64,000 bases of DNA from an uncultured Acidobacteriota bacterium. Its GTDB lineage: Bacteria; Acidobacteriota; Thermoanaerobaculia; Multivoradales; UBA5704. Of this stretch, positions 36,293 through 53,700 are shown one piece after another (the first letter of the stretch is position 1; the number at the start of each line of letters is the position of its first letter). Both the position numbers and the translations under genes were made by a program. The DNA is taken from positions 1,920,001 through 1,984,000 of the forward strand of contig OY969474.1 of NCBI GenBank assembly GCA_963700145.1, given 5' to 3'. Under the pieces are notes generated by a model. The model worked only from the letters and a program-made list of their open reading frames with translations. It did not search any database and had not been told where the DNA came from.

Positions 36293-38404
36293 TCAGTAGA
36301 GCTGGGCCGTGACCCGGCCGCCGGCCGTGAGATGAACAGCCAGGCGGCGGGCGGCGCCGCCGGGGAGGGCGACCTCGACGACCTCGGCGGTGCGCCCTTC
36401 GGGCGTAACCAAAACCAGGAGCCGCTCGGTGCCGGCCGGCACCACGACGTTCTGCTGGAACCAACCGCCGCGCGCCCGCCGGCTCAAGAAGCTCCCCTCG
36501 CGGAAGTCGAAGCGCCGGTTGAGCAGGCTCTGCTGCCTGGTCCGCACCATCACCGTGCCGAGCGGCAGGTCGCTGCGGAACTCCACCGTCAGCGTCGCGA
36601 GCGCCGGCTGCTGCGGCTGCGGGACCGCGGGCAACGTCTCCGCCACCGCCGGCGCCGCGGCCGGCGGCGCGGCCTCGGTCGCCGGCACCGTCGGGCCCGG
36701 CCGCTGCGCGCGCTGCGCCGCCCCCTGCCGCTCGCGTCCGGCCACCGCCGTGCGCAGGATCTGCGGCGCCTCGGGATGGTGGGGGTCGAGCTCCAGGATG
36801 CGCCGGCCGGCCGCTTCGGCGGCGTCCCAGCCGCGGCGGCGCAGAGCGCCGTGCGCCTCCTCCAGGCGAGTGCCGATCTCCTGCTCGATCGCCTGCCGCC
36901 GCGCCAAGTCCATCGTCTCCCGCTCCGCGTCGCGGCGCAGCTTGCCGAGCACTGTCACGGCGGGGGCCAGCCGCTCGGCGCGGCCGAAGGCTTCCGCGGC
37001 CGCCGGCGCCTGGCCCGCCTCCCTGAGCGCGGCCCCCTCCGAGATCAGCGGCACGACCTGCGGATGGACATCCGGCGCCTCGGCGTTGGCGGGGACCGGC
37101 GGCTGGGTCCAGGCGAGGAGCAGGAGCGCCGCCGCCACCGCGAAGATCGGCACCGCCGCGGCGGCGGCGGTGAGGAGCGCGAGACGGCGGGGCGCCGGGG
37201 AGAGCGGCGCGCTGGCCGCGGCCGGCGGCGCCGGACGCACCGGCATCGGGTCGGGCGGGATGAGCGGCACGACGTCCGCCAGCTCGAGCCCCGAAGAGAC
37301 GGTCTCGTCGTCGCCCGGCAGCGGGCTCAGCACGACCTCGCCGCTCGGGATTTCGGCAGCGGCGGCCACGGCCGCCGGCGCCGCGGTGGACGGCATCGCC
37401 GCCGTTCGCTTGCGCGGCAGCAACCGCCTCCAGATCGGCACCACCGGCGCCGCCAGCGCCTCCTCGGCGAGCACCGCCGTCGCCGCCAGGCTCTGCGTCT
37501 CGTTGAGCGACTCGTGATCGGCGGCCGGCCGCTCCCCCACCAGGCGCTTGAGGTCGTCGGTCAGCTCGCGCGCCCGCTGGTAGCGCTCCGCCGGGTCCTT
37601 CGCCAGCGCCCGGGCGAGGATGCGCTCCACCTCCGGCGGCAGGTCGCGCACGTACTGGCGGGGCGGCGTGAACCCGTCGTAGACGATGCGGTGGGAGACG
37701 ACCGTCAGGTTCTCGCCCTGGAAGGGCTTGTGCCGGGTGAGCATCTCGTAGAGCACCACCCCGAGCGAGAAGAGGTCGGCGCGGTGGTCCACCTCCTTGC
37801 CCAGGATCTGCTCCGGCGCCATGTAGTTGGGGGTGCCGAGGAGCTGCCCCTCCTGGGTCAGGTTCGAGGTGTCGAGCCGCGCGATGCCGAAGTCGGTGAT
37901 CTTCACCCGGTTGTCGGCGGTGATGATGATGTTGGCGGGCTTGACGTCGCGGTGGACGACGCCGCGCGAGTGGGCGTAGTCGAGGGCCTCGCCGACCTGG
38001 CGCACGATCTCGGCCGCGAACGGCAGGCCGAGCGGCGTCCCGCCCTGCAGGAGCTGCTTCAGGTTGGTGCCGCGGACGTACTCCATGGCGATGAACGCCA
38101 CACCGTCCGCCCCTTCCTCGACGACGTCGTGGATGGTGACGATGTTGGGGTGCGAGAGGATGCCGGCGCTCTGCGCCTCGCGGATGAAGCGGGCGCGGAA
38201 CTGCTGCAGCTCGTGGTCCTTGACCGAGTAGCCGATGCGGAAGGTCTTGAGCGCCACCAGGCGCCCGATCAGCGGGTCGCGGGCCAGGAAGACCACCCCG
38301 GCCGCGCCCTTGCCGAGCTCGTCGAGGATCTCGTAGCGGCCGAGTCGGCTTGGGGTAGCAGGCAACATCGACGTCGTCTGAAAAGCGCGAGTTGGAAGGG
38401 GCAT
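36293..38404 (-). CDS. Hanks-type Ser/Thr protein kinase, membrane-anchored
   Basis: LGKGAAGVV, VALK, HRDVKPAN, TDFGIA, GTPNYMAPEQ; TM helix and TPR-like C-terminal part; start uncertain. Confidence 0.92.
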   Translation of the reverse strand: MPLPTRAFQTTSMLPATPSRLGRYEILDELGKGAAGVVFLARDPLIGRLVALKTFRIGYSVKDHELQQFRARFIREAQSAGILSHPNIVTIHDVVEEGADGVAFIAMEYVRGTNLKQLLQGGTPLGLPFAAEIVRQVGEALDYAHSRGVVHRDVKPANIIITADNRVKITDFGIARLDTSNLTQEGQLLGTPNYMAPEQILGKEVDHRADLFSLGVVLYEMLTRHKPFQGENLTVVSHRIVYDGFTPPRQYVRDLPPEVERILARALAKDPAERYQRARELTDDLKRLVGERPAADHESLNETQSLAATAVLAEEALAAPVVPIWRRLLPRKRTAAMPSTAAPAAVAAAAEIPSGEVVLSPLPGDDETVSSGLELADVVPLIPPDPMPVRPAPPAAASAPLSPAPRRLALLTAAAAAVPIFAVAAALLLLAWTQPPVPANAEAPDVHPQVVPLISEGAALREAGQAPAAAEAFGRAERLAPAVTVLGKLRRDAERETMDLARRQAIEQEIGTRLEEAHGALRRRGWDAAEAAGRRILELDPHHPEAPQILRTAVAGRERQGAAQRAQRPGPTVPATEAAPPAAAPAVAETLPAVPQPQQPALATLTVEFRSDLPLGTVMVRTRQQSLLNRRFDFREGSFLSRRARGGWFQQNVVVPAGTERLLVLVTPEGRTAEVVEVALPGGAARRLAVHLTAGGRVTAQLY

Positions 38405-38576
38405 TGTAGGCTCCGAGCGGCCCCGAGTCAAACCCGCGCGTGTGCCGCTAAGCGATTCTGCCGCTTGCGTTTAACCGCCGAAGCACGGGCCGGCGTCAAG
38501 CCGGGCTGCTATGGTATATCTTCGCGCTGCTCTCCCGGCCGGGAGCGCCGAGCCTACCCACAGGAGGTCCCCAGGC

Positions 38577-40667
38577 ATGCAGGTCGACAGTCCTGAGAAG
38601 ATCCGCAACCTCGCGGTGGCGGGACACAACGACACCGGCAAGACCACCCTCGTCTCGGCCCTGCTCTTCGCGGGGGGCGTGGTCAACCGGTTGGGGCGGG
38701 TCGAGGACGGCAACGCGCCGACGGACTTCGACCACGAGGAAGTGCAGCGCGGCATCTCGATCGGGCTCGGCACCGCCTTCGTGCCCTGGAAGGGCCACAA
38801 GGTCAACCTCATCGACTGCCCCGGCTACTCGATCTTCCTGACCGAGACCAAGGCCGGGATGCGGGCGGCGGACGCGGTCCTGCTCTGCGTCAACCCGGTG
38901 GCCGGCGTCGAGGTCACGACCGAGCGGGTCTGGAGCTTCGCCGAGGAGCTGGGGCTCCCCGTCCTCCTCCACCTCGCCAAGATGGACCGCGAGCGCGCCG
39001 ACTTCGACCGCGCCGTCGCCGGGCTCCAGGCGCGCTTCGGCCGCGGCGTCCTGCCGCTGCAGCTGCCGATCGGCGGCGAAGCGCGGTTCGAGGGGGTCGT
39101 CGACCTGGTGCAGAACCGCGCCTACCGCTTCGCGCGCGACGGCAACGGCCGCGCCGAGCCGGCTGAGGTGCCGGCCGAGCACGCCGCCGAGATCGACGCC
39201 TGGCGCGGGCGGCTGATCGAGGCGGTGGCCGAGACCGACGACGCGCTGATGGAAGGGTTCTTCGAGAGCGGCTCGCTCGAGCAGGCCGACTTCGAGGCGG
39301 GGCTGAAGCGCGCGATCGCGCGGCGGCAGGTCTTCCCGCTCACCCTCTCGGCGGCGGCGCACGGCATCGGCCCCGCGGCCCTCCTCGACGCGGTCGTCGC
39401 CCACGCCCCCTCTCCCGCCGAGCGCTCCGGCTTCCCGGCGACCAACGTCGGCGGCGACCCGATCGAGGCGCCGACGGGCCCCGGCGACCCGGCCGCGGCG
39501 CTGGTCTTCAAGACCATCAACGACCCGTTCACCGGCAAGCTGACGCTCTTCCGTGTGGTCTCCGGCACGCTGCGCTCCGACGCCACCGTCTACAACGCCC
39601 GCGAGGAGGAGACCGAGCGGCTCGGCCACCTGCTCGTCCTCCAGGGCAAGCAGACGGCGCCCGTCGGCCAGCTCGTGGCCGGCGACATCGGCGGCGTCGC
39701 CAAGCTCAAGCACACCCACACCGGCGACACCCTCTGCGCCAAGGAGCGGCCGGTGCGGCTGGCCTGGATCACGGTGCCGGAGCCGGCGATGGCCTTCGCG
39801 ATCAAGCCCAAGAGCAAGGGGGACGAGGAGAAGATCGGCGAGGCGATGGCGCGCCTGATGGAGGAGGACCTGACGCTGCGCGCCGGCCGCGATCCCGAGA
39901 CCCACGAGGTCCTGCTCTCCGGCACCGGCCAGCTGCACATCGAGATCGCGGTGGCGAAGCTCAAGCACCGCTACCACGTCGACGTCGAGCTGCACCAGCC
40001 GAAGGTGCCCTACCGCGAGACCATCCTGCGCCCCGCCGACGGCCACGGCCGGCACAAGAAGCAGACCGGCGGCCGCGGCCAGTTCGCCGACTGCCGGATC
40101 AAGATCGAGCCGATGCCGCGCGGCGGCGACTTCGAGTTCGTCGACGAGATCTTCGGCGGCTCGATCCCGCAGAACTACCGGCCGGCGGTCGAGAAGGGGA
40201 TCCAGGATGCCCGCCACCGTGGCTACCTCGCCGGGTACCCCGTGGTCGACTTCCGGGTCCGCCTCCTCGACGGCCAGTACCACGACGTCGACTCCTCGGA
40301 GCTGGCCTTCAAGATCGCCGGCTCGCTGGCCTGGAAGGACGCCATGCAGAGCGCCAAGCCGACGATCCTCGAGCCGATCATGAAGGTCGAGATCGCCACC
40401 AACGACGAGTTCATGGGCGACATCATGGGCGACCTCTCGCACCGCCGCGGGCGGCCGCTGGGGTTGGACTCGCAGAACGGCGCCCAGCTCATCAAGGCGC
40501 TGGTGCCGATGTCCGAGATGCTCAACTACGCCCCCGCCCTGCGCTCGATGACCCAGGGCCGGTCGAGCTTCACCATGGAGTTCTCGCACTACGAAGAGGT
40601 GCCGCGCCCGGTGCAGGAGAAGATCATCGCCGACGCGCAGAAGGCCAAGCAGGAGCAGGAGGCCTGA
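38577..40667 (+). CDS. fusA2: Elongation factor G-like protein (EF-G2 paralogue)
   Basis: GHNDTGKTT, RGISI, DCPG, GQLHIEI, KKQTGGRGQF, HDVDSSE.AF, LRSMTQGR; SD AGGAGG. Confidence 0.9.
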   Translation: MQVDSPEKIRNLAVAGHNDTGKTTLVSALLFAGGVVNRLGRVEDGNAPTDFDHEEVQRGISIGLGTAFVPWKGHKVNLIDCPGYSIFLTETKAGMRAADAVLLCVNPVAGVEVTTERVWSFAEELGLPVLLHLAKMDRERADFDRAVAGLQARFGRGVLPLQLPIGGEARFEGVVDLVQNRAYRFARDGNGRAEPAEVPAEHAAEIDAWRGRLIEAVAETDDALMEGFFESGSLEQADFEAGLKRAIARRQVFPLTLSAAAHGIGPAALLDAVVAHAPSPAERSGFPATNVGGDPIEAPTGPGDPAAALVFKTINDPFTGKLTLFRVVSGTLRSDATVYNAREEETERLGHLLVLQGKQTAPVGQLVAGDIGGVAKLKHTHTGDTLCAKERPVRLAWITVPEPAMAFAIKPKSKGDEEKIGEAMARLMEEDLTLRAGRDPETHEVLLSGTGQLHIEIAVAKLKHRYHVDVELHQPKVPYRETILRPADGHGRHKKQTGGRGQFADCRIKIEPMPRGGDFEFVDEIFGGSIPQNYRPAVEKGIQDARHRGYLAGYPVVDFRVRLLDGQYHDVDSSELAFKIAGSLAWKDAMQSAKPTILEPIMKVEIATNDEFMGDIMGDLSHRRGRPLGLDSQNGAQLIKALVPMSEMLNYAPALRSMTQGRSSFTMEFSHYEEVPRPVQEKIIADAQKAKQEQEA

Positions 40668-41137
40668 CCCCACTTCGCACGCTGCGCCGCCGCCTCGTCC
40701 TGCTCCTCGTCGTCTACTTCTTCGCCGGGGGCGCCAGCCAGAAGCTGGTGCCCGGGGTGGACGAGATCTTCCCCTTCTTCGGCTGGTCGCTCTTCTCGAA
40801 GGTCCCCAACGACGAAAGCCGGTACTGGATCGTCATCGACCGCCACGACGGCCGGCCGGTCGAGCCTCCCGTCTCCTTCCTCCACGCCCCCGAGTCGATC
40901 GTCGGCGGCAACCGCTGGGTCGGCCGCAAGGTGATCCAGCGGCTGGGCCGGGCGTTCGACAAGGGCCGGACCGGCGAGGTCGCCGACCTCCGCCGGCTGC
41001 TCGAGCAGAACTACCTGCGGGGCCAAGTGCGCTACGAGCTCCTCTTCGGGCGCTACGACCCGCTGGAGAAGTGGAAGACGGGCGAGAGCCGAGAGACCAG
41101 ACGCCTGGCGAGCTTCGAGAGCGGCGACGCGGAATGA
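40664..41137 (+). CDS. Hypothetical membrane-anchored protein
   Basis: Frame open from CTG 40664 with TM segment RRLVLLLVVYFFAGG and EIFPFFGWSLFS; ATGA overlap with the next gene. Confidence 0.6.
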   Translation: MTPLRTLRRRLVLLLVVYFFAGGASQKLVPGVDEIFPFFGWSLFSKVPNDESRYWIVIDRHDGRPVEPPVSFLHAPESIVGGNRWVGRKVIQRLGRAFDKGRTGEVADLRRLLEQNYLRGQVRYELLFGRYDPLEKWKTGESRETRRLASFESGDAE

Positions 41138-42147
41138 AGCGCAAGGGCCGCCTCGAGGCGATCGCGGCGTTCTTCCGCCCGCGGCACGCCGTGCCGTGGG
41201 CGGAGCGGACGGCGCTCCTGGCGAGCCGGGAGAGGTTCGCCGCCGCCCGGGCGCTCGTCTCGGCCTTCTACGCCGTGCTGCTCTTCTTCGCTCTGAGCAA
41301 CCTCTTCTCCTGGCAGGACTTCCTCAACGCGACGGAGCTCACGCCCCGCTGGCCGCTCTTCTGGCTGCGCTTCGTGGACCTCCATGCCGGCATCGTCTTC
41401 GTCCTCTGGTTCCACCTCCTCGGCGGCCTTCTCGGCGTCGTCGCTCCCGGCTCCCGCCTCGCGCGCATCCTGGTCTTCTGCTCCTGGCTGGAGTTCCTGG
41501 CGCTCCGCTACTCGTTCGGGTCCATCAACCACGGCGACCACCTGGGGCTCCTCCTCACCTTCGTCCTCATCTTCCTGCCGCCGGGGTGGAGCTCCAGCCG
41601 GACGCCCGGGCGGTCCGTGCGCACCGCGACGCTGCTCGTCTTCTCCGGCTGCCAGGCGATGATCATGCTGACCTACAGCATGTCGGGGATGTGGAAGGCG
41701 GGCGGGGTGGTGCAACAGGCGATCGAAGGGGAGGTCACCTACCTCGCCCCCTCGGCGCTCGCCCGGCAGGTGGCGGCCAAGCTCCTCTCCGACGAGTCCT
41801 CCGGCCTCCTCGGTCCCTGGCTGATCGAGCACGCCTGGGTGGGCTGGCCGCTGATGATCGCCGCCCTCTACCTGGAGCTCTTCGCGCTGTGGGCCGTGCC
41901 GCGCCCGTCGCTGCACCGCGGCTGGGGCCTGGGCCTCATCCTGCTCCACGTCGCCACCCACCTGACGATGGGCGTCGGGTTCCCCCAGAACCCCCTCTGG
42001 CTCGCCCTCTTCCTCGTCTTCTCGCCGTTCCGCCCGCAGCCGTCGCCCGGCTGGCGCCGGGCCCTGCGCGATCTGCCCCTCGTGGGGCGGTGGCTGGGGC
42101 CCTCTGGTACTCTCGCGCCGGTGACACGCAAAAGCAGCTCTCTGTAG
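41134..42147 (+). CDS. Multi-pass membrane protein (HTTM-like)
   Basis: Several TM helices, YSFGSINH, YSMSGMWK, LLHVATHLTMGVGF. Confidence 0.65.
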   Translation: MKRKGRLEAIAAFFRPRHAVPWAERTALLASRERFAAARALVSAFYAVLLFFALSNLFSWQDFLNATELTPRWPLFWLRFVDLHAGIVFVLWFHLLGGLLGVVAPGSRLARILVFCSWLEFLALRYSFGSINHGDHLGLLLTFVLIFLPPGWSSSRTPGRSVRTATLLVFSGCQAMIMLTYSMSGMWKAGGVVQQAIEGEVTYLAPSALARQVAAKLLSDESSGLLGPWLIEHAWVGWPLMIAALYLELFALWAVPRPSLHRGWGLGLILLHVATHLTMGVGFPQNPLWLALFLVFSPFRPQPSPGWRRALRDLPLVGRWLGPSGTLAPVTRKSSSL

Positions 42148-42160
42148 GAGGTTTTAGCCC

Positions 42161-42718
42161 TTGGTTCAAGCCACTCAGCTCCGCGCCGGCATGTGCATCC
42201 TCTTCGAGAAGGACATCTGCCGCATCATGTCGGTCCAGCACGTCACCCCCGGCAACTGGCGGGGGTTCGTCCAGGCGCGCATGAGGAGCCTCAAGAGCGG
42301 CAACAGCTTCGAGCACCGCTTCGGCTCGACCGAGCGGGTGGAGCGGGCGATCCTCGACACCCACCCGATGGAGTACCTCTACTCCGACTCCTCCGGCCAC
42401 CACTTCATGAACCAGGAGAACTACGAGCAGGTGGCCCTCGAAGACGAGACGCTGGGCACCTCCATGCTCTACCTGCTGCCCAACACGGTCATCAAGGTGG
42501 ACTTCCACGAGGGTCAGCCGGTGGGCATCGAGCTCCCCAACACGGTCACCCTGGAGGTCGTCGAGACCGACCCGCCGCTGCGCGGCGCCACCGCCAGCGC
42601 CTCGTACAAGCCGGCCAAGATGGAGACCGGCCTGGTGGTGCAGGTGCCGCCCTTCATCGAGGTGGGGACCAAGATCCTCATCGACACGCGCGAGGACAAG
42701 TACCTGAGCCGCGGGTAG
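42161..42718 (+). CDS. efp: Elongation factor P
   Basis: HVTPGNWRGFVQ, YLYSD, FMN.ENYEQ, TDP..RGATAS..KPA.METG..VQVP.FI..G..I.IDTR; TTG start after AGGAGG. Confidence 0.96.
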   Translation: MVQATQLRAGMCILFEKDICRIMSVQHVTPGNWRGFVQARMRSLKSGNSFEHRFGSTERVERAILDTHPMEYLYSDSSGHHFMNQENYEQVALEDETLGTSMLYLLPNTVIKVDFHEGQPVGIELPNTVTLEVVETDPPLRGATASASYKPAKMETGLVVQVPPFIEVGTKILIDTREDKYLSRG

Positions 42719-42745
42719 CGCCCGGGCCACGTCCCGGGCGTTCTT

Positions 42746-43450
42746 ATGGACCCCAACCTCGTCCTCCTCGGCCTGACCTGGTTCGTGGTCTTCCTCTTCT
42801 CGACCACACTGCACGAGGCCGGGCACGCGCTGGCCGCCAAGAAGCTCGGCGACCCCACCGCCTACCACGGCGGGCAAGTCTCCCTCTCGCCGTTCCCGCA
42901 CATCAAGCGCGAGCCGTTCGGCATGGTGCTGGTGCCGCTGCTCTCCTTCGTCCTGTCGCGCGGCGGCTGGATGATGGGCTGGGCGAGCGCCCCCTACGAC
43001 CCCATGTGGGCGCACCGGCACCCGCGGCGCGCGGCGCTCATGGCGCTGGCCGGCCCGGCGGCGAACCTGCTGCTGGTGATCGTGGCCGGGGGGCTGATCC
43101 GGCTGGGGGTGGCGACCGGGGCCTACCGGGTGCCGGAGTTCGTGACCTTCACGGCCGTGACCCAGCCGGCGGCGGAGGGGCTGGCGGCGGCCGCGGTGCT
43201 GCCGCTCTCGATCTTCTTCACCCTCAACCTCGTCCTCTTCGTCTTCAACCTGCTCCCCCTACCCCCCCTCGACGGCAGCGCCGCCATCGCCATCCTGATG
43301 CCCGACGAGATGGCCCGTCGCTACCAGGAGTTCCTCCACAACCCCAGCTTCTCCTTCCTCGGCATCCTCATCGCCTGGCGCCTCTTCAACCCGGTCTTCG
43401 ACCCGGTGCACACGGTGGCGCTGCGGCTGCTATACCTGGGCGCGTTATAG
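42746..43450 (+). CDS. Site-2 protease (M50) family
   Basis: LHEAGH, AGPAAN, FNLLPLPPLDG. Confidence 0.92.
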   Translation: MDPNLVLLGLTWFVVFLFSTTLHEAGHALAAKKLGDPTAYHGGQVSLSPFPHIKREPFGMVLVPLLSFVLSRGGWMMGWASAPYDPMWAHRHPRRAALMALAGPAANLLLVIVAGGLIRLGVATGAYRVPEFVTFTAVTQPAAEGLAAAAVLPLSIFFTLNLVLFVFNLLPLPPLDGSAAIAILMPDEMARRYQEFLHNPSFSFLGILIAWRLFNPVFDPVHTVALRLLYLGAL

Positions 43451-43557
43451 GGCGCTGCGCTACCTCTGCCGGTGACGCACCGTGCAGACGGTTCACTCGG
43501 GGCAGCATCCAACATTGAAGGTCAAACCTAGAGACTCTAAACAAGGAAGCACTTAGC

Positions 43558-45183
43558 ATGGACGGAATCACGCCAGACATTGTTGCACGCCTCGATCTTG
43601 CGGCAGCGATGCAACAGGCTTGCGTTCCAAATGATCTACTGCCTTCGCGAGAGGAGGATCGCGTGGGCGGAGAACTCGGCAAGCGCTATGCGGAACACCT
43701 CCGCAAGCAGTTAGAGGAGGGGCGTTACGAACCCGACCCCGCCTCCTTTGTGCCAGTTCCCAAGCCAGGCTTCACATCCCGCCCCGCCGCACTCCTTACG
43801 CTGACCGATCGAGTGCTTTACGAGGCGCTCGTATCCCTTCTTCGCCCTCGTCTCGCGAAGGTCCTTTTGGATCCTGAGGTCGTTCTATGGCCTCGTGAAA
43901 CGTATGTGGAGAAGCGCTGGGCAGAGTTCGAAGGCGCCCCTCTCACCGTTTCTACTGCCTACGTCGTGCAAGCTGACGTAGCTGGTTTCTACGAGACGAT
44001 CAGTCACGACCAGCTTGAGGATGATCTCGTGCAATTGACTGGCGAGAGGCAGGTCGCCAAAGCCATTAGCGCGTTCCTTTCTCGCGTCATGAACTCTCCA
44101 CGCGGCCTTCCCCAGGGCCTCCTCCCATCGGACACACTCGCCACCACATATCTGCAACCTCTCGACGCTGCCCTCTTGCGACAAGGCTTCCACCACTGGA
44201 GGCACGGTGACGACATCCGCGTGGCCGCTGATACCATCCCCGATGCACGGGAAAGCATCGCGTTGATCGAGCACGAACTGCGAAACCGCGGACTCCTAGT
44301 GAGTGGCTCCAAGTGCGCCATTATCACTCGCGAGAACTACGAGGCAAGTCTGTTGGCTAGCGACGCTGCGCTTAGCGCAGCGCGCGAGAGCCTTCTGGCA
44401 GCAAGGATTGAGGAGGTCGCCAGTGATGATGAGGAGTTAATCTCTGCCATGGAGAAGGCGCAGCTCGACGAGGATGTGAGCTGGGCTCTGTTCTACCATA
44501 TGTCTATTTCGATCGACGAAGTGATCGACATGCTCCGAGAACATCTGCAGCCCACCGACATCGAGGTCGCACAAGAGGTCTTCTTGGAAACTGTCCGGCA
44601 TGGCCCCGGAAGTCAAGATCCGTTGCCGAAAGAGCAGTTTCATGCGCAAATCACCCGCTCGCTATTGCGCTTAGCCGCGGCCAGGTCTCCTGTTGGCCTG
44701 CGGAAGGCGGCATGGTTGACGGAAACATTTCCCGAGAAGACAGGGCTAGTATGCACCTACCTTCAAGCGATGATGCGATCACACTCGCTTCAGGCTGTGC
44801 GCCAAGCGGAGAAGGTATTGCTCTCTGCGGCGTTCACTACGGCGTGGCAGCAAGCGTGGCTTCTCAGGGTGTTAGGTCTCGGTTCGGAACGTATCGCACC
44901 TGCCACGGTCGAGCGCTTGGAGGCGATAGCCAACGACGAAGCTGCTCACTGGCTTGCCCGAGTAGAAGCAATGAAAGTGCTGGCTCGCCTTAACCGACTC
45001 GATCGTGACACCGTGCTTCGAAGCTGGAGACTAGCACCACGGCCATATAGGAGTGATCTGTTGGAAGCGACCGCCTTTCTGCGGGACTCGGAAGAATGGG
45101 CACGAAGGTTCCTCAAGGGAACGCAGCTGGATCCTGTCGAGAAGGTGGTCGTGAGTCACTTGACGAGCCAAGCGCGCACCTAA
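43558..45183 (+). CDS. Stand-alone reverse transcriptase, probably UG/Abi (DRT-like) class, with C-terminal alpha-helical repeat domain
   Basis: VPKPGFTSRP, ADVAGFYETISH, GLPQG..PSD.LA..YL..LD, WRHGDDI, GL....SK; about 280-aa helical C-terminus; visibly lower GC than neighbours. Confidence 0.88.
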   Translation: MDGITPDIVARLDLAAAMQQACVPNDLLPSREEDRVGGELGKRYAEHLRKQLEEGRYEPDPASFVPVPKPGFTSRPAALLTLTDRVLYEALVSLLRPRLAKVLLDPEVVLWPRETYVEKRWAEFEGAPLTVSTAYVVQADVAGFYETISHDQLEDDLVQLTGERQVAKAISAFLSRVMNSPRGLPQGLLPSDTLATTYLQPLDAALLRQGFHHWRHGDDIRVAADTIPDARESIALIEHELRNRGLLVSGSKCAIITRENYEASLLASDAALSAARESLLAARIEEVASDDEELISAMEKAQLDEDVSWALFYHMSISIDEVIDMLREHLQPTDIEVAQEVFLETVRHGPGSQDPLPKEQFHAQITRSLLRLAAARSPVGLRKAAWLTETFPEKTGLVCTYLQAMMRSHSLQAVRQAEKVLLSAAFTTAWQQAWLLRVLGLGSERIAPATVERLEAIANDEAAHWLARVEAMKVLARLNRLDRDTVLRSWRLAPRPYRSDLLEATAFLRDSEEWARRFLKGTQLDPVEKVVVSHLTSQART

Positions 45184-45188
45184 AAAGG

Positions 45189-46647
45189 GGGGTTGTCCCT
45201 CCCGCTGTTGAAAGAGCAATGAGGTGAAGGCGGCTCCTCGGCCCACCTGATCGAGAATCGGGTTGGTCGAATAACCGGCCCCGCCAGGGGGCCAAGGAGC
45301 CGTGATGAAGACGAGAGCAGAAAGGCGGGTGGTGTGGCAAGGGGGCCGTGCGGCGCGCATCAGCCACGGGCTACAAGCGCTGCTGCGGCCGATGGTCGAG
45401 GGCATCGAGGCCAGCCGCCAGGGGCTGCTGGAGCTGTTTCACGCCGCGGGCGTCGAGGCCCTGGGGCGGCAGCTCGCGGACGAGGTCGAGGCCGTCGTCG
45501 GTCCGAAGCGTCGGCGCAATCCGACCCGCGAGGCGTACCGCTGGGGCTCGACGGCGAGCGAGTTCGTGCTGGGTGGCCGCCAGGTGGCGCTGCCGCGACC
45601 GCGCGTCCGGCGACGCGACGGTGGCGAGATGAGCTTGCCTTCGGTGCGCGCCTTTCAGGACGAAGATCCCTTCACGGAGCGGGTGATCGAGCAGGCGCTG
45701 GTCGGCGTCTCGCAGCGCCGCTACGGTCGGAGCTTGGAGCCGCTCGCAGAGTCGGTGCCGGAGCGCGCGACGAGCAAGAGTGCGGTCCAGCGCCGGCTGG
45801 TGGCGGGGACGCGTCGTCTGCTGGGCGCGTGGCTGCGCCGAGACCTGTCGGACTTCCAGCCCCTGATCCTGATGATCGACGGGCTGGAGGTGGCCGGCCA
45901 CACCCTGGTGGTGGCACTCGGCATCGCGCGCGACGGGACCAAGCGGGTGCTCGGCCTGCGTGAAGGCGCGACGGAGAACGCGGCGCTCTGTACCGGCCTG
46001 CTCCAGGAGCTGTTGGAGCGAGGCCTCGCGATGCCGCCGCGCTTCTTGGCGGTGCTCGACGGCGGCAAGGGGCTGCGCAAGGCCGTGCGCGCCGTCTTCG
46101 GGGACGCAACCCACGTCCAGCGCTGCCAGCTCCACAAGCGCCGCAACGTCCGCGACCACCTGCCCAAGCAGCTCCAAGCCCGGGTCGACCGCCTGATGGT
46201 CGAGGCCTACCAGAGCGCTCGCTTCGACCTCGCCAAGCGTCGCCTCGAGCAGCTTGCCCGCTGGCTCGAGCACGCAGGCCACGCGGGCGCCGCGGGCAGC
46301 CTGCGCGAGGGCCTCGACGAGACCCTCACCGCCTTGCGGCTGAAGCTGCCCGACGCTCTGCGCCGGTTGCTCGCCTCGACCAACGCGATCGAGAACACGA
46401 TCGGCTCGATCCGTACGACGACGCGCAACGTCAAGCGCTGGCGCGGCGGCGACATGGTGCTGCGCTGGGTCGCCCTGGCGCTGTGTGACGCGGAGGCTGG
46501 CTTCCGGCGTGTCAAGGGACATCGGCACCTCGGGGCTCTCGAGCTCGCGCTCGCGGCGATCGAGGAACCGACGAACACCAAGGCCGTGGCATGATCAACC
46601 GAGCCGCTTTCCCTCTTTCGGCTTTCAACAGGGAACGGGGCATCCCC
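45189..46647 (+). mobile_element. IS256-family insertion sequence
   Basis: Imperfect 26-bp terminal IRs GGGGTTGTCCCTCCCGCTGTTGAAAG and GGGGATGCCCCGTTCCCTGTTGAAAG (rc); 9-bp direct repeat CTAAAAAGG at 45180-45188 and 46648-46656. Confidence 0.9.
45302..46594 (+). CDS. IS256-family (Mutator-like) DDE transposase
   Basis: GVSQRRY, LMIDG, VALGI..DG.KRVLG, LDGGKGL, QRCQLHK.RN, STNAIE. Confidence 0.93.
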   Translation: MMKTRAERRVVWQGGRAARISHGLQALLRPMVEGIEASRQGLLELFHAAGVEALGRQLADEVEAVVGPKRRRNPTREAYRWGSTASEFVLGGRQVALPRPRVRRRDGGEMSLPSVRAFQDEDPFTERVIEQALVGVSQRRYGRSLEPLAESVPERATSKSAVQRRLVAGTRRLLGAWLRRDLSDFQPLILMIDGLEVAGHTLVVALGIARDGTKRVLGLREGATENAALCTGLLQELLERGLAMPPRFLAVLDGGKGLRKAVRAVFGDATHVQRCQLHKRRNVRDHLPKQLQARVDRLMVEAYQSARFDLAKRRLEQLARWLEHAGHAGAAGSLREGLDETLTALRLKLPDALRRLLASTNAIENTIGSIRTTTRNVKRWRGGDMVLRWVALALCDAEAGFRRVKGHRHLGALELALAAIEEPTNTKAVA

Positions 46648-46748
46648 CTAAAAAGGTTCACAACCAGACTTCTCCTTCCTCGGTACCCTTATCGCCTAGC
46701 CCGGTAAGGCTTCCGGAACGCGCCGAAGGCTTGGCCAAGTGGGGGCGT

Positions 46749-47330
46749 TCAGCGGACGAAGTAGCGGTAGTGCCCGGTGACCTCGTAGGCGAAGAGGATG
46801 TCCTCGAGCCGCGTGCCGGCGCCGATGTTGTGGACGACGAGGCGGCGGTCGGTGCGCGCGACGGGGCGGTCGGAGGTGATGCCGACGTGGGGCACTCCCG
46901 AGGGCAGGCGCCAGGTGACGACGTCGCCCGGTAGATAGTCGGCGCCGCGGCTTGTGACCGGCACGGCCTTGCCGCCGCGGCGGAAGAAGGTGGCCAGGTT
47001 CGGCACGCGGCGGTGGTCGATGTTGGGATCGGGGCGGCGCAGGCCCCAAAGACGGGGGTAGGCGTCGAAGTGGGCCTTCATGTCCTCGTGCACGAGCACC
47101 TGCAGGTCGGTGCCGGCGCGGCGGAAGGCGCGGACGACGACGTCGGTGCAGACGCCGGTCGCGAGCGGCACGTCGCCGCCCGGGTAGGCGATACGGCGGT
47201 AGCTCGGGTCGTAGCCGGGGGTCCTCCCCACCTGCTCCACCGCCCCCGCGACCAGCGCGGCGACACCGGCCTCCTGCGCCAAGGCGGGGGCCAGCGCGAC
47301 GACGACCAGGAAGGCGAAGGCGCGCCTCAC
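46749..47330 (-). CDS. DUF1287 domain protein
   Basis: YDPSY..IAYPGGDVP...GVCTDVVVRA.R..G.DLQ.LVHEDM, DPNIDHRRVPNL..FF.R, VHNIG.G. Confidence 0.88.
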   Translation of the reverse strand: MRRAFAFLVVVALAPALAQEAGVAALVAGAVEQVGRTPGYDPSYRRIAYPGGDVPLATGVCTDVVVRAFRRAGTDLQVLVHEDMKAHFDAYPRLWGLRRPDPNIDHRRVPNLATFFRRGGKAVPVTSRGADYLPGDVVTWRLPSGVPHVGITSDRPVARTDRRLVVHNIGAGTRLEDILFAYEVTGHYRYFVR

Positions 47331-47339
47331 AGGGGTTGA

Positions 47340-47531
47340 TCAGGAGGACCGGGGAGCCTCTCCGATAGGGGGCTGCGAGGCCTGGATCTCCGCCAGGTCG
47401 TCGGCAAAGCGAGGGTCCGGCGCGCCGAGCTGCCGCAGCCGCTCGACCAGCTCGCGAAGGGTGACGCGGCGGCTCGGCGACGCAGGCGAGAATCGTCTTG
47501 TGGCCTCGGTCGCGGTGACTCTTTTGTCCAT
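47340..47531 (-). pseudogene. Internally deleted Phd/YefM-like antitoxin; toxin partner missing
   Basis: MDKRVTATEATRRFS N-terminus joined directly to a TLRELVERL...DPRFADDL.EI...QPP C-terminus. Confidence 0.55.
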
Positions 47532-47610
47532 CACCACGACGGTACTCTGAAGAATCAGATTGCCGCAAGGCGCGGGACCGCCCTCCGGGCTGCGCCGGGG
47601 GGCCTCCGGC

Positions 47611-47881
47611 GCCGCCGGAAGCTTCCCCCTCGCCGCCGGAAGCTTCCCCCTCGCCTCCGGAGGCTTCCGCACCTGCTCCGGAAGCTTCCGCCCCGCCTCC
47701 GGAAGCTTCCCGTTCACCTCCGGAAGCTTCCGCTTCGCCTCCGGAAGCTTCCGCTCCTCCTCAGGAAGCTTCCCGGCCACGTCCGGAAGCTTCCCGCCCG
47801 CCTCCGGAGGCTTCCGCACCACCTCCGGAAGCTTCCGCCCCGCCCTGGGAAGCTTCCGCTCCTCCTCCGGAGGCTTCCGGA
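47611..47881. repeat. 13 x 21-bp tandem array with palindromic core GGAAGCTTCC
   Basis: Cores start at 47617, 47638, 47659, ... 47869 with an exact 21-bp period; three copies read GGAGGCTTCC; the intervening 11 bp vary. Confidence 0.95.
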
Positions 47882-47885
47882 GGGG

Positions 47886-49583
<1,698 letters not shown>

Positions 49584-49674
49584 GCGCGGGGGATTCCTCC
49601 TAGGAACGGCCGGAGGCGCAATCGTAGGAGAGCTGTCCCATCGGAGCAACTACGGAGTCACCGAGAGCAGTAGA

Positions 49675-50103
49675 ATGAGCGATGCCATGATTGTCTTCAT
49701 CAGCCATTCGTCGAAGGATTCCAAGTGGGCGCAAGACCTCTCGCAGCGGCTCCGCCAAGAAGGTCTGGAAGTGTCCAACCCGAGCTCGGACTACGATCCG
49801 GGGAACAACTTCTTTCTCGAAGCCGCCAGGGCTCTCGACCGCGCCGACGCGATGATCGTGCTGATTTCTCCTGCCTTCGTTGGATCCGAATGGGCCGGGA
49901 AGGAACTCGAATACGCCCTCTTCTCGCAAAAGTTCAAAGACCGCTTGATCCCGGTCATCCTTCGCCCCGACGCAGAGATGCCGTGGATCCTGCGTCGTCT
50001 GCAGCCACTCGAGGCCCATGATCCCGCGACGGTCGACGAGATCATTCGCCGTCTGAAACAGCCGGACGCTCCACATTCGCGCGCACGTGCCGATTCCCGC
50101 TGA
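49675..50103 (+). CDS. Stand-alone TIR-domain protein 1
   Basis: VFISHSSKD, IVLISPAFVGSEWAGKEL, LIPVIL; start may be ATG 49687. Confidence 0.88.
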   Translation: MSDAMIVFISHSSKDSKWAQDLSQRLRQEGLEVSNPSSDYDPGNNFFLEAARALDRADAMIVLISPAFVGSEWAGKELEYALFSQKFKDRLIPVILRPDAEMPWILRRLQPLEAHDPATVDEIIRRLKQPDAPHSRARADSR

Positions 50104-50503
50104 GCTGTTCCTCTCCCATTCGGATCAGGATCGCGACTTCGCCGAAGCTTTGGGCGCAGTCCTCGGGCGCCACGGAGTGCCCTACTGGTACAGCCGGCGC
50201 GATCTCCGCGGCGCCGATATTTGGCACGACGAGATCGGTACCGCGCTGCATCGGTGCGACTGGTTTCTCCTCGCGCTCTCTCCCGCCGCCATCGATTCGA
50301 TGTGGGTGAAGCGGGAGCTCAACTTCGCATTGCGCGACCCACGGTACGAGGGGCACATCGTGCCCGTGCTTTACCAGCCCTGCGCCTACGAGAGCCTCTC
50401 GTGGACGCTCGGCGCGATCGAGAGGATCGACTTCACGGCCGGCTTTGACGAAGGCTGTCGCGAGCTGCTGCGCATCTGGGGCTTGGGCTACCGCCCAGCG
50501 TAG
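50087..50503 (+). CDS. Stand-alone TIR-domain protein 2
   Basis: LFLSHSDQD, EIGTAL..CD.FLL.LSP.AIDS.WVKREL, IVPVLY, IDF. Confidence 0.9.
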   Translation: MPIPAELFLSHSDQDRDFAEALGAVLGRHGVPYWYSRRDLRGADIWHDEIGTALHRCDWFLLALSPAAIDSMWVKRELNFALRDPRYEGHIVPVLYQPCAYESLSWTLGAIERIDFTAGFDEGCRELLRIWGLGYRPA

Positions 50504-50672
50504 ATGTCTTAGCGTAGCTCCCCACGAGCTCTCACCGTTCCCTACTCGAGCTAAGGCCTACACCTGCGTGCCGCCGCGGCGAGAAGACAAAGTCACCGAA
50601 GGACTAGCGGCTTGTTCGACGTGAACGGCTGAGTACTGTGTCTTCCGAGTGCGGACATGTGCCTCCGGAGTA

Positions 50673-50708
50673 GCCGCCGCCCAGATCCTTCGCTGTGCTC
50701 AGGATGAC
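50673..50708 (-). repeat. REP-like palindromic repeat, copy 3 (degenerate opposite half-copy at about 50741-50768)
   Basis: GCCGCCGCCCAGATCCTTCGCTGTGCTCAGGATGAC. Confidence 0.8.
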
Positions 50709-50783
50709 GAGAGTGCTCATGCCGGACACGACCCCATTTTGAGCGAAGCCTAGCGCAGCGAAGGATATTGGGGCTGACGCTTC

Positions 50784-53700
50784 TTAGCGGGTTCCGGCGA
50801 CTGGCGCTTGGCCGAGCGCCGCCAGGTCGGCGCCGTTCTCGCGCGCCTCCTTGGCGGCGCGCTGGTACTCCTCGCCCTTGCCCAGCGCCTTGGCGGCGAT
50901 CGCCAGGAGCACCTGCCCTTCGGTGCCCTCGATGCCGCCGCTCTCGATTCCCCGGCGCAGCCGCTTGAAGGCGCGGTCGTAGACGCCGCGCTGCATCTCG
51001 AGGCGCGACTCGAGGACCTTCATCTCGCGGCCGATCCAGCCGCCCATCCCCTCCTCGAGGGTGCGGTCGGCGCGCTCGAAGTCGGCCTGCGCCTCCGCGG
51101 TCCGCCCCTGGTCGAGGTGGAGGCGGGCGAGCCCCAAGTGGATCTGTCCGTCGAGGAGCCGCCGCTCGCGGCCGTCGTCCTCGCTCTCCTCGTCGCTGCC
51201 CTCGACCTCGCCTTCGACCGGCGCCGCCAGCGCCCGGGCGAACAGCTCGCCGGCGCGGGCCCCGTCGCCGCCCGCCGCGGCGTCCATCGCCTGGTACCAG
51301 AGCACCCGCTTGGGCGAGCGGCTCTCGTCGAAGAAGCGGCCGAAGACCTCCTCGTGGCGGTCCATCCAGAAGCCCTTCGGCTCGTGCTCGACCGCGATGT
51401 CGAAGTTCGAGGTCTCGCCGCGGATCAGGATGTGGGCGCGGCCGGTCAGGTTCGCCTGCTCCTTGCCGTCGCGCCGGGCCTTGCCGGCCGGCGGCTTGCG
51501 CGGGTCGTAGAGGGTCATCTCGACCGGCACGACCAGCGCCGAGTCGGCGACGGCGACCTGCTCCAGCCGCTCGCGCGCGACGTCGAAGCCGGCGGCGGTC
51601 TTGACCGCGCGGTAGCGGAAGCGGTAGGGCGCCTGCTGCCGCGCCGTGCCCTTGACCGCCCACCCCGCCTCGCCCTTCTCGAAGCGGTAGGTGTAGTACA
51701 CCTCGGGGAGGCCGGTGCCGTAGACGTACTGGTCGGCGAACCAGTCGAGCTCGCCGCCGGTCATCTTCTCGAAGAGGACGAAGAGGTCCTCGGTCGAGAG
51801 CGGCCGGTGCGCCACGACGCGCGCCGTCTCCTTGAGCATGCGGGCGAAGGTCTCCTCGCCGACGCTGCGCGCCAGCATGTCGAGGATCACTGCGCCCTTG
51901 TAGTAGACGATCGCCTGGTAGGCGGCGTCGGAGCGGCTCGACACCAGCCGGGCGCCGAGCACCACCGGCCCCACCGCCTCGACCGGCCGGCCGTCGTCGA
52001 GGGTCTCGGTCAAGGCGCGCTGCCAGCCGGTCGTCGGCCCGATGCGGGCGCGGTCCAGCCACTCCAGCTTGTTCTTGGCGTAGAGCAGGGCGGCGTAGTT
52101 GGCCAGGGCCTCGGAGAGCCACTGGTCGCGGTAGCTCGACCACCCCACCATGTGCCCCCACCACTGGTGGGCGATCTCGTGCGCCACGATGGTGCGCCGG
52201 TCCTCGAAGCCGAGCAGCTCCTGCAGCCAGTCGAGGTCGGCCATCATCAAGTTGGAAAGAGTGACGAAGCCGAGCATCGCCTGCGAGAACTCGCGCGGGC
52301 TGGTGACGACCGTCAGGTGGTCGAGCGGGTAGGGACCGAAGATCTCCTCGAAGTAGGCGAGCGACCCTGCCACCGCCTGCGCGATCTCCTCGCGCTCGGC
52401 GCGCCCGACGATGTCCTTGCCGGCGGCGTCGAAGGCGAGGGTGACGGTGACGTGGCCCGCCGGCACGGTCTGGACGTCGAAGTGCCCGACCTCGAAGGCG
52501 AAGCCGACGGCCGGGAGGTCGAGGGTGCGCCGCTCCCAGCGCGTTCCGCCGCGCTCGCCGCCGTCGGCGCGGACCCCGCTGGCCAGCAGGTCGAGCTGCT
52601 TCGGCCAGGTGAAGGTCGCGTCGTAGCGGGCGCGGTCGAGGGTGCCGGCGCGCGGGTACCAGTCCTGGGTGTCGAGCAGCTGGTAGGCGCGGCCGTCGCG
52701 GTGGAGGAGGTTGCCGGCGTACTCGACGACGACCGCCAGCGGCTCGCCGGCCTCGGGCGCCGCCGGCAGGAAGACGTTGAGCTCGCCCGCCGAGCGCAGG
52801 AAGAAGAGCGGCGCGCCGGCGCCGTCGGTCACCCGCTTGACCTCGAGGTCGCGCGACAGGCGCAGCGCCAGGTTGCGCGAGCGCAGCACGGGCTGGAGGT
52901 CGAGGCGGGCCTTGCCGACGAGCCGCTCTCCCTTCTCGGCGATCGTCACCTCCAGTGTGTACTTCTCGGGCTCGAAGGCGGCGGTGCCGGGCAGGGGCTT
53001 GCCGTCCTTGGCGCGCAGCGCCGCGGAGAGCCAGGTGTCCCACTGCCCCATGTCGTCGAGCTCGACGCCCATCAGGCGGCCGCGGCGCTGCTCGCGGTGC
53101 ACGGCGCGGCGCAGGCGCCGCTTCTCGCGCGCGCTCGCCTCCAGCGGCACGAAGCGGCCTAGCGTGACCTGCTCCTGCGCGTCGGGCTCGACCACGTAGA
53201 GGAAGTCCCCGAGCTCGCCGCCGCGGCACCAGGCGGCGAAGTAGCGCTGGTAGAGCGGATCGGCGGCGGCGTCCATGAAGACCCCGGCCTCGACGTTGAG
53301 GAGTCGCCGCTGCGCGCTCCCCTTCCAGGCAGCGTAGAACGCCTCGGCGGCCTTGACCGCCTCGGGCGGGAGCGCGGCGGCCTTGGGCTTCTTGAGCAGG
53401 GCGTCGACGGCGCCGTCCATCCCCAGCACCAAGACCGCCTCGGTGAAAGGCTGGTCGAAGCGGCCGTCGCCGGTGAAGAGCTCGAGCTGCCCGGCCTCGA
53501 TCCGGTCCGGCGGCTCGACCGTGATGCGGCCGCTGCCGCGGAAGACCATCTCGACCACCCGGCCGCCGACCGGCGTCGCCGGCAGGAGCACCCCGTCGTC
53601 GAGCCGCAGCGTGCCGATCCCGGCCTCCAGCTTGACGCGGCTGACCTGGACGGCGCCGGCCGGCTCCAGCCGCGCGGCGCGCACCTGGGCGAGGAGGGCC

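Follow-up and report, generated by a model that had tools for sequence, protein, structure and literature searches.

The stretch of DNA analyzed here (hereafter, the window) comprises 64,000 nucleotides (nt) of contig OY969474.1 from an uncultured Acidobacteriota bacterium and carries, at positions 43558 to 45183 of the plus strand, a gene for a reverse transcriptase (RT) of the UG22 lineage, which belongs to the Class 1 UG/Abi enzymes. We lean toward the view that this RT is a functional, stand-alone Class 1 polymerase, which would make protein-primed, untemplated DNA for defense against phages. Untemplated synthesis is the most likely reading because of the architecture of the protein, its single-gene organization, and the lack of an RNA partner; we infer both this mode of synthesis and the defense function by analogy with characterized enzymes. 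The gene is an intact open reading frame (ORF) of 541 amino acids with an ATG start, and all of its catalytic residues are kept, so that the enzyme is predicted to be catalytically competent.

Placement in UG22, motif C, and predicted fold

A first-pass annotation of the gene, made from the DNA letters and their ORFs, had proposed an orphan RT of a possibly uncharacterized clade and had suggested a comparison with profiles of known RT groups. When this comparison was run with PADLOC, RT_UG22 was the best profile (E value of 1.4e-112, 375 bits) and matched the protein over its full length (residues 5 to 533 on profile positions 2 to 474 of 476). UG22 was named in 2022 by Mestre et al., whose survey places it in Class 1 of the UG/Abi enzymes and describes an alphaRep domain at the C terminus (PMC9226505). 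The next PADLOC profile was RT_UG21 (2.2e-54), followed by UG23, UG32, UG19, Drt8, and UG20 (∼1e-33 to 1e-36; Drt8 reached 1.4e-33 versus 1.4e-112 for RT_UG22), and the Drt4 and Drt6 profiles were absent from the top 25 matches. Among the NCBIfam models of defense-associated reverse transcriptases (DRTs), the cut-offs of Drt3a (40 bits, cut-off of 200), Drt5 (34 bits, cut-off of 550), Drt2 (21 bits, cut-off of 390), and Drt4 (20 bits, cut-off of 450) were not reached; the top NCBIfam match was the group II intron RT TIGR04416 (78 bits, cut-off of 300), and the retron RT NF038233 scored 19 bits (cut-off of 235). Thus, the part of the orphan claim that stands is that no characterized DRT or Abi type claims the RT; judging by the full-length profile match, it is a member of a named, experimentally untouched group and not an unplaced orphan. 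Existing tools such as PADLOC would already label the gene in this way, which makes the assignment useful and not surprising. For the related groups, a search for DRT8, UG7, UG21, and UG23 in the literature since 2023 gave no mechanistic study among the matches listed.

The protein has a complete RT core, with DVAGFYETISH, GLPQG, and SK at the places where they had been annotated and in agreement with Pfam, which assigns residues 67 to 257 to RVT_1 (E value of 5.8e-15; 56 bits, cut-off of 29.6). Based on the Pfam match and a profile alignment to the group II intron RT GsI-IIC (structure 6ar1), the fingers and palm span residues ∼40 to 257 (43675 to 44328; all features of the gene and its surroundings are on the plus strand unless stated otherwise). 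Motif A, DVAGFYETISH (residues 140 to 150; 43975 to 44007), contains the catalytic D140, as indicated by conservation and by the 6ar1 alignment; GLPQG occupies residues 183 to 187, and SGSKC holds K252. Motif C reads R-H-G-D-D (residues 215 to 219; 44200 to 44214), which confirms the annotated HGDD in place of YxDD. In the alignment to 6ar1, RHGDD falls on the RYADD of group II intron RTs and FY (residues 144 and 145) falls on FF, and the residues of motifs A and B are ordinary RT ones. In RTs, the second aromatic residue of the FY/FF position is presumably the steric gate for the sugar, in which case the enzyme is expected to be a DNA polymerase and not an RNA polymerase.

A word-index search for homologues returned 105 proteins at an E value of ≤0.001, of which 104, including the window protein, had E values of ≤5.4e-78 (33 to 64% identity). 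For the alignment, 41 of the 105 were picked to cover the identity range, with full-length sequences favored. R215, H216, G217, D218, and D219 were invariant in all 41 sequences, as were D140, F144, Y145, H150, K69, R75, P185-Q186-G187, and K252. Across the 104 close homologues (P0001 to P0104), motif C was HGDD in 103 and RGDD in 1. Because 103 of 104 carry HGDD, it is a trait of the lineage and not the decay mutation whose exclusion the annotation had made depend on this check.

When 1.84 billion representatives were searched exhaustively with a profile, 768 proteins reached an E value of ≤1e-30. A FastTree phylogeny (LG+gamma, midpoint rooted) was built from 116 sequences, taken from 150 listed representatives plus P0001 and leaving out 34 sequences that were shorter than 440 amino acids or lacked the motif region. 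It resolved five UG22 clades with Shimodaira-Hasegawa-like support of 0.95 to 1.0 (0.97 for clade E, which holds the window protein). Clade A (n = 37; ∼620 amino acids) has an N-terminal extension and Y/F-A-D-D as motif C; clade B, the partnered sister clade (n = 10; ∼480 to 510 amino acids), has H-N-, Y-S-, or F-S-D-D; clade C (n = 11; 650 to 730 amino acids) has HGDD and a weak N-terminal winged helix-turn-helix (wHTH); clade D (n = 6) has C-S-D-D and similar; and clade E (n = 52; ∼540 amino acids) has an extra ∼50 residues around positions 290 to 340. All 52 clade E proteins carry G-D-D, and the residue before it is H (39 proteins), N (5), Y (4), R (3), or K (1). On these sequences, the conserved novelty of clade E is the glycine together with the loss of the aromatic residue, not the histidine itself. 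An altered nucleotide selectivity, as the annotation had proposed, is not supported: the His position accepts N, Y, R, or K within the clade, and motifs A and B are those of ordinary RTs. RT_UG22 was the best match for all 10 proteins sampled across the five clades; the clade B protein P0236 outscored the window protein on it (387 versus 375 bits), and therefore the published profile is probably centered on clade B. As for the N-terminal extensions, that of clade A (∼100 residues) is unannotated, and that of clade C (∼100 to 190 residues in P0166, P0173, P0177, P0179, and P0203) gave weak, mostly subthreshold winged-helix/MarR-like matches.

AlphaFold2, run with the 41-sequence alignment, produced a model with a mean predicted local distance difference test (pLDDT) score of 93.3 and a predicted template modeling (pTM) score of 0.89, in which a fingers-palm lobe extends to residue ∼257 and is followed by helices at residues 258 to 540 with pLDDT values of >90. 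This structure prediction, which the annotation had also proposed, agrees with its ∼280-amino-acid helical C-terminal domain: the region assigned here as the alphaRep domain (44329 to 45177; DSSP of the model and Foldseek) is all helix. The predicted model thus consists of an RT-like lobe and a helical lobe without a thumb, which is the Class 1 layout. Searched with Foldseek against the Protein Data Bank (PDB), it matched, by query-based template modeling score (TMq), DRT6 (9wy8, a hexamer; 0.60), DRT4 (9vdo; 0.57), UG15 (9l9s; 0.56), AbiK (7r06; 0.52), and Abi-P2 (7r08; 0.46). These top five matches cover ∼550 to 600 columns, i.e., the whole chain, and several RTs of group II introns and diversity-generating retroelements (DGRs) matched the RT lobe only (0.36 to 0.40). 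The UG/Abi (DRT-type) architecture of RT plus alpha-helical repeats that had been suggested for the gene is therefore supported by the PADLOC profile, the model, and the Foldseek matches alike.

Single-gene organization, flanks, and acquisition of the cassette

In the survey that named it, UG22 is described with a HEPN-like neighbor, "cluster 79" (PMC9226505). We collected 28 clade E loci from species-representative genomes and grouped all their ORFs (≥70 amino acids, within 3.5 kb) with BLASTP; apart from the RT and antisense ORFs inside it, no neighbor family occurred in more than 3 of the 28 loci, and the family common to 3 loci came from syntenic relatives. Clade B served as a positive control. 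Of 41 metagenome loci retrieved with a clade B alignment, 33 were examined (2 loci with statistics identical to those of L050 and 6 contigs of <2.2 kb were left out), and 31 of the 33 (clade B loci are L049 to L088) have an ORF of ∼200 amino acids directly 3′ of the RT, often with a 4-nt stop/start overlap; the exceptions are L061 and one contig that ends there. In an alignment of 18 of these neighbors, only E62, R130, H135, and G138 are invariant, and this Rx4H signature is consistent with the HEPN-like "cluster 79"; Pfam gave one weak HEPN_RiboL-PSP match only for the 18 proteins. The RTs of the partnered clade B loci carry Y/F/W-[NSTAV]-D-D, never HGDD. A profile of the partner matched no ORF in the window or in the 28 clade E loci (E value of ≤10), found nothing in the window's own 5.46-Mb genome (E value of ≤1; 127 candidates scored), and detected no fused domain in any of 246 family proteins. 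The N-terminal extensions seen in other clades were considered as the missing HEPN and rejected, since they gave weak wHTH/MarR-like matches and no match to the partner hidden Markov model (HMM). The window clade is therefore a partner-less variant of UG22, and the UG22 set of the survey may already include partner-less members. That the gene stands alone, as annotated, agrees with the lack of a conserved neighbor, the silent partner HMM, and the single-gene insert described below.

Disregarding the insertion sequence (IS) on its 3′ side, the gene had been credited with about 100 bp of noncoding DNA on each side, and we find 107 nt upstream and ∼105 nt downstream, the latter between the RT stop and the stop of a DUF1287 gene. 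The upstream noncoding part of the cassette (43451 to 43557) is absent from the empty sites of two genomes of the same genus (G004 and G001), and the downstream part (∼100 nt; 46649 to 46748) holds a degenerate copy of the 3′ end of an M50 gene (∼46657 to 46703). RNA folding was no better than that of shuffled sequences (z scores of −1.08 upstream and of +0.83 and +1.47 downstream), Rfam gave no match in 40000 to 50000 at an E value of ≤1, and the flanks of 17 intact clade E loci and the window have no sequence in common, except between close pairs; in several clade E loci, neighboring ORFs abut the RT. The annotation had kept open a gene plus noncoding RNA (ncRNA), an option that these results do not support; a conserved structured ncRNA beside the RT, as in the ncRNA-dependent DRT2, DRT3, DRT9, and DRT10, was not found. 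There is likewise no repeat resembling the template repeat/variable repeat (TR/VR) pair of DGRs in 38000 to 52000. A putative ribosome-binding site, AAGGAAG, lies 8 to 14 nt 5′ of the RT ATG; a scan of 43300 to 46900 for sigma-70 promoters and terminators gave nothing useful, and a search of sequencing runs listed no RNA run, its only match being one soil-metagenome DNA run, possibly of the source sample.

The RT gene follows efp and the M50 peptidase gene, and on its 3′ side come a Transposase_mut (IS256-type) element and then a convergent DUF1287 gene. In the same-genus genomes G004 (M50 protein 98% identical) and G001 (94%), the M50 and DUF1287 stop codons are ∼12 bp apart; in the window, they are separated by 3.3 kb, made up of a ∼1.84-kb RT cassette and the IS. 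As annotated, the gene is lower in GC content than its surroundings (0.584 versus 0.709 for the window; 0.57 and 0.58 for its ∼100-nt upstream and downstream flanks, respectively), and its GC content at third codon positions (GC3) is 0.63, versus 0.97 for the M50 gene. Of 151 genomes sampled from the order, only the window genome matched the UG22 profile (E value of ≤1e-60), and it has a single UG22-type RT copy; among genomes that are at least 90% complete, the figure is 1 of 127. According to record titles, homologues occur in Gammaproteobacteria, Myxococcota, Acidobacteriota, Gemmatimonadota, and Actinomycetota. The empty site, the low GC3, and the patchy distribution show that the RT was acquired horizontally as a single-gene cassette. 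No close relative was found among PLSDB plasmids (2 distant matches to the RT domain only, 34% identity) or in IMG/VR (3 distant matches, 26 to 27% identity), and INPHARED phages gave no relative at an E value of ≤1e-10.

Genome comparison and a repeat search place the left boundary of the insert, together with the left copy of a direct repeat, at the 3′ end of the M50 gene (43335 to 43450), the last ∼21 nt of which differ from those in the same-genus genomes. The direct repeat is imperfect (43348 to 43379 and 46669 to 46700; 88% over 32 nt, ∼50 nt recognizable) and brackets the cassette and the IS. Site-specific integration of the cassette into the M50 3′ end, which this repeat had brought to mind, was considered and set aside: the cassette carries no integrase, and a simple att model does not account well for which of the two copies is conserved and which is degenerate. 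The IS itself (45188 to 46648) is of the IS256 family, with a Transposase_mut ORF (45302 to 46594; Pfam PF00872), imperfect terminal inverted repeats of 42 nt (45188 to 45229 and 46607 to 46648), and TAAAAAG on both sides as the core of the target duplication. The left copy of this core includes the RT stop codon TAA, and the RT reading frame is left intact. Including this one, the 5.46-Mb genome holds 21 full-length copies of the IS at ∼100% identity. We take them as the result of a recent transposition burst, in which the IS was recently active and landed next to the RT incidentally, without being part of the system.

Twenty ORFs next to the RT were surveyed in 17 of the 28 loci of clade E. 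Several were of defense type, namely, SIR2 (L013), an AAA_15/AAA_21 ATPase (L001), Zeta-toxin/AAA_33 (L018), an HNH protein (L026), and a type III methyltransferase (L022). The others were DUF5677 (L008), four transposases or integrases, ClpB, an ORF with SEC-C only (upstream in L013), and seven without a match. These neighborhoods fit an accessory gene in a mobile context, a pattern that is anecdotal, as it has no matched background.

Elsewhere in the window, ∼4.5 kb from the RT, there are two small adjacent TIR-domain ORFs (49672 to 50100 and 50087 to 50500; GC content of 0.61 to 0.65). The first matches Pfam TIR_2 (E value of 2.3e-24), and both match the PADLOC profiles SAVED_TIR, Aga_TIR, and PDC-S66 at 1e-8 to 1e-11; the pair may be a separate defense-type locus. 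A minus-strand ORF (47340 to 47822) contains at least 14 tandem copies of a 21-nt repeat (47549 to 47942), which encode heptad repeats of the KLPE type; as the array can be aligned with that of the same-genus genome G004 in several registers, the copy number probably varies.

Proposed mechanism and rival explanations

For AbiK and Abi-P2, Figiel et al. (2022) report that the helical domain takes the place of the thumb, makes the cleft too narrow for a duplex, and holds the growing single strand. It also mediates assembly of the trimer or hexamer on which activity depends, with the RT lobe contributing to the interface as well, and DNA is primed on a tyrosine (PMC9508834). DRT4, a single-gene system, is reported to form a hexamer and to synthesize untemplated single-stranded DNA (ssDNA) that is primed on the protein itself (Tyr125) and is stabilized by a phage DNA-binding protein (PMC12783706); a 2026 preprint adds that its active-site residues set a purine bias and that it has an RNase activity dependent on deoxynucleoside triphosphates (dNTPs) (bioRxiv 10.64898/2026.10.27.754916). 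More generally, Class 1 enzymes are described as untemplated and Class 2 enzymes as ncRNA templated (PMC13174585). By analogy with AbiK, Abi-P2, AbiA, and DRT4, the window RT would oligomerize, prime DNA synthesis on a tyrosine of its own, and extend ssDNA, with no nucleic acid template, in the channel that separates the RT lobe from the helical lobe. On a signal from the phage, this polymerase activity would then be turned into abortive infection; a cue of the DRT4 type would be a protein resembling single-stranded DNA-binding protein (SSB) that stabilizes the product, or a rise in dNTPs. Since there is no nuclease partner like that of the sister clade, the role of effector would fall to the DNA product or to the RT itself. 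Candidate priming tyrosines conserved in clade E are Y261, Y401, Y145, Y57, and Y313, of which Y261, at the start of the helical domain and the junction of the lobes, is invariant in clades B to E and replaced by Phe in 11 of the 37 clade A proteins.

A bolder proposal, which we hold to be rather unlikely, is that the partner-less x-G-D-D clade would unite sensor, polymerase, and effector in one self-contained protein, having lost the nuclease of a two-gene RT-plus-HEPN ancestor, and that its remodeled motif C would give a DNA product or priming chemistry so far unseen in DRTs. If so, the change from an aromatic residue to His, Asn, Arg, or Lys next to an invariant Gly could mean, for example, base-biased or protein-dictated synthesis.

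Several points weigh against a defense polymerase that works without a template. The defense prediction for UG22 was rated inconclusive in the survey of Mestre et al. (PMC9226505), and a literature search on UG22 RTs found no experimental study, with this 2022 survey as the only relevant paper among the matches listed. In sequence, the RT lobe is much nearer to the template-copying group II RTs (residues 44 to 263 of 6ar1 align to the RT family profile with an E value of 3.9e-22; 5hhl, 2e-21) than to UG15 (1.2e-7) or Abi-P2 (2.3e-7), so that the sequence gives no evident sign of templating having been lost. The conserved tyrosines are no more than candidates for priming. In addition, the RT sits between housekeeping-type genes and not in a defense island, and the defense-type neighbors of its homologues are a minority of the examined ORFs, without a matched control.

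Given its RT lobe, the enzyme might instead be a template-dependent RT that copies a host or phage RNA, its own mRNA, or an unrecognized small RNA, as in DRT2, DRT9, and DRT10. Such an enzyme would suit the best alignment of the lobe, with motifs 0 to 7 of the group II intron RTs 6ar1 and 5hhl, the group II RT model as the top NCBIfam match (though well below its cut-off), and the canonical dNTP-binding residues K69, R75, and Q186. We nevertheless find it distinctly unlikely, because only the 107 nt upstream and ∼105 nt downstream are available for an RNA, these flanks fold no better than shuffled sequences, lack an Rfam match, and are unconserved across the 17 intact loci and the window, and in several loci a neighboring ORF abuts the RT; moreover, the model has no thumb/X domain, and its predicted whole-chain fold is the RT plus helical lobe of the untemplated enzymes. 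Another explanation is that an unlinked or host-supplied effector replaces the HEPN-like gene, so that the RT would not be self-contained. The coupling of clade B to the Rx4H protein in 31 of 33 loci suggests an ancestral logic of RT plus nuclease, but the partner profile was silent in the window's own genome, and the cassette entered an empty site as a single gene. As homologues are spread across at least five phyla by horizontal transfer, an unlinked dependency would be hard to keep, and DRT4 and DRT6, as reported, are working single-gene precedents; a dependence on an outside effector thus seems clearly improbable.

We regard it as very unlikely that the gene has no role in defense, whether as a recently acquired passenger that is heading for decay or as an RT that now serves the cell in some other way. 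The inconclusive defense association in the only survey of UG22 (PMC9226505) and the active IS that landed at the RT stop codon would fit such a history, as would the state of the homologous loci, of which 5 are split, 5 are partial, and 1 is cut by a contig end among 28. We did not use the split and partial counts as evidence of decay, since several of these loci come from long-read metagenome-assembled genomes, in which frameshifts may be sequencing errors. A passenger is at odds with the intact ORF, the full set of catalytic residues, the full-length conservation of the family at 33 to 64% identity, and the reading frame spared by the IS, and a housekeeping role is at odds with the patchy distribution (1 of 151 genomes). 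Finally, the RVT_1 match and the similarity to group II RTs could also come from a mobile retroelement (group II intron, retron, or DGR), which is extremely improbable here: the genome has a single UG22-type copy, neither an intron, msr/msd, or another RNA family (Rfam, 40000 to 50000) nor a TR/VR pair (38000 to 52000) was found, there is no maturase/X or endonuclease domain, and the group II and retron scores in NCBIfam are far under their cut-offs. Pfam, the AlphaFold2 model, NCBIfam, Rfam, and the repeat search hence agree with the annotated absence of maturase and endonuclease domains, retron features, and a DGR TR/VR pair.

The window RT as a probable stand-alone Class 1 polymerase adds to a varied field, as the DRT types studied from 2024 to 2026 are each reported to make DNA differently, i.e., by gene assembly or as homopolymers, random ssDNA, or protein-templated repeats (PMC13213688). 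The present analysis divides UG22 into a nuclease-coupled Y/F-x-DD clade and a stand-alone x-G-D-D clade, and this pair is a natural comparison for what the nuclease does and what replaces it. For expression tests, the window offers a clean, minimal cassette (∼1.84 kb) whose insertion boundaries are known. Overall, we consider the RT a reasonable biochemical candidate of moderate interest.

Comparison with known systems

The closest solved sequence relative of the RT lobe is the group II intron RT GsI-IIC (6ar1), to which it corresponds over motifs 0 to 7. It differs from this enzyme in having RHGDD instead of RYADD and in lacking the thumb/X domain, the DNA-binding and endonuclease domains, and an intron RNA. 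With AbiK and Abi-P2, the window RT shares the bilobal arrangement of fingers-palm and alpha-solenoid lobe without a thumb, but the structural match is lower (TMq of 0.46 to 0.52, ∼11% identity), and the priming tyrosines in the fingers loop of these enzymes (Y44 and Y61) are not conserved in it. The described UG22 system with its HEPN-like protein is linked to the window RT by the full-length profile match, the combination of RT and alphaRep domain, and one family tree; however, clade E has x-G-D-D instead of Y/F/W-x-D-D, and the HEPN-like partner is found in 0 of 28 clade E loci versus 31 of 33 clade B loci.

The same genome also encodes a second Class 1 RT (genome G000, contig C1, 4151557 to 4153125; positions 1102 to 2670 of locus L030), which is of the DRT6/DRT4 type (PADLOC Drt6, E value of 1.4e-149; Drt4, 5.6e-146) and is a separate observation from those on the window gene. 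Compared with DRT4 (UG15) and DRT6 (UG12) themselves, the window RT has the same single-gene organization and a whole-chain structural match (TMq of 0.56 to 0.60), whereas the sequence identity in the structural alignment is 12 to 14% and the priming Tyr125 of DRT4 has no identifiable equivalent. By analogy in organization and predicted fold, DRT4 and DRT6 are the most likely functional model for the window RT.

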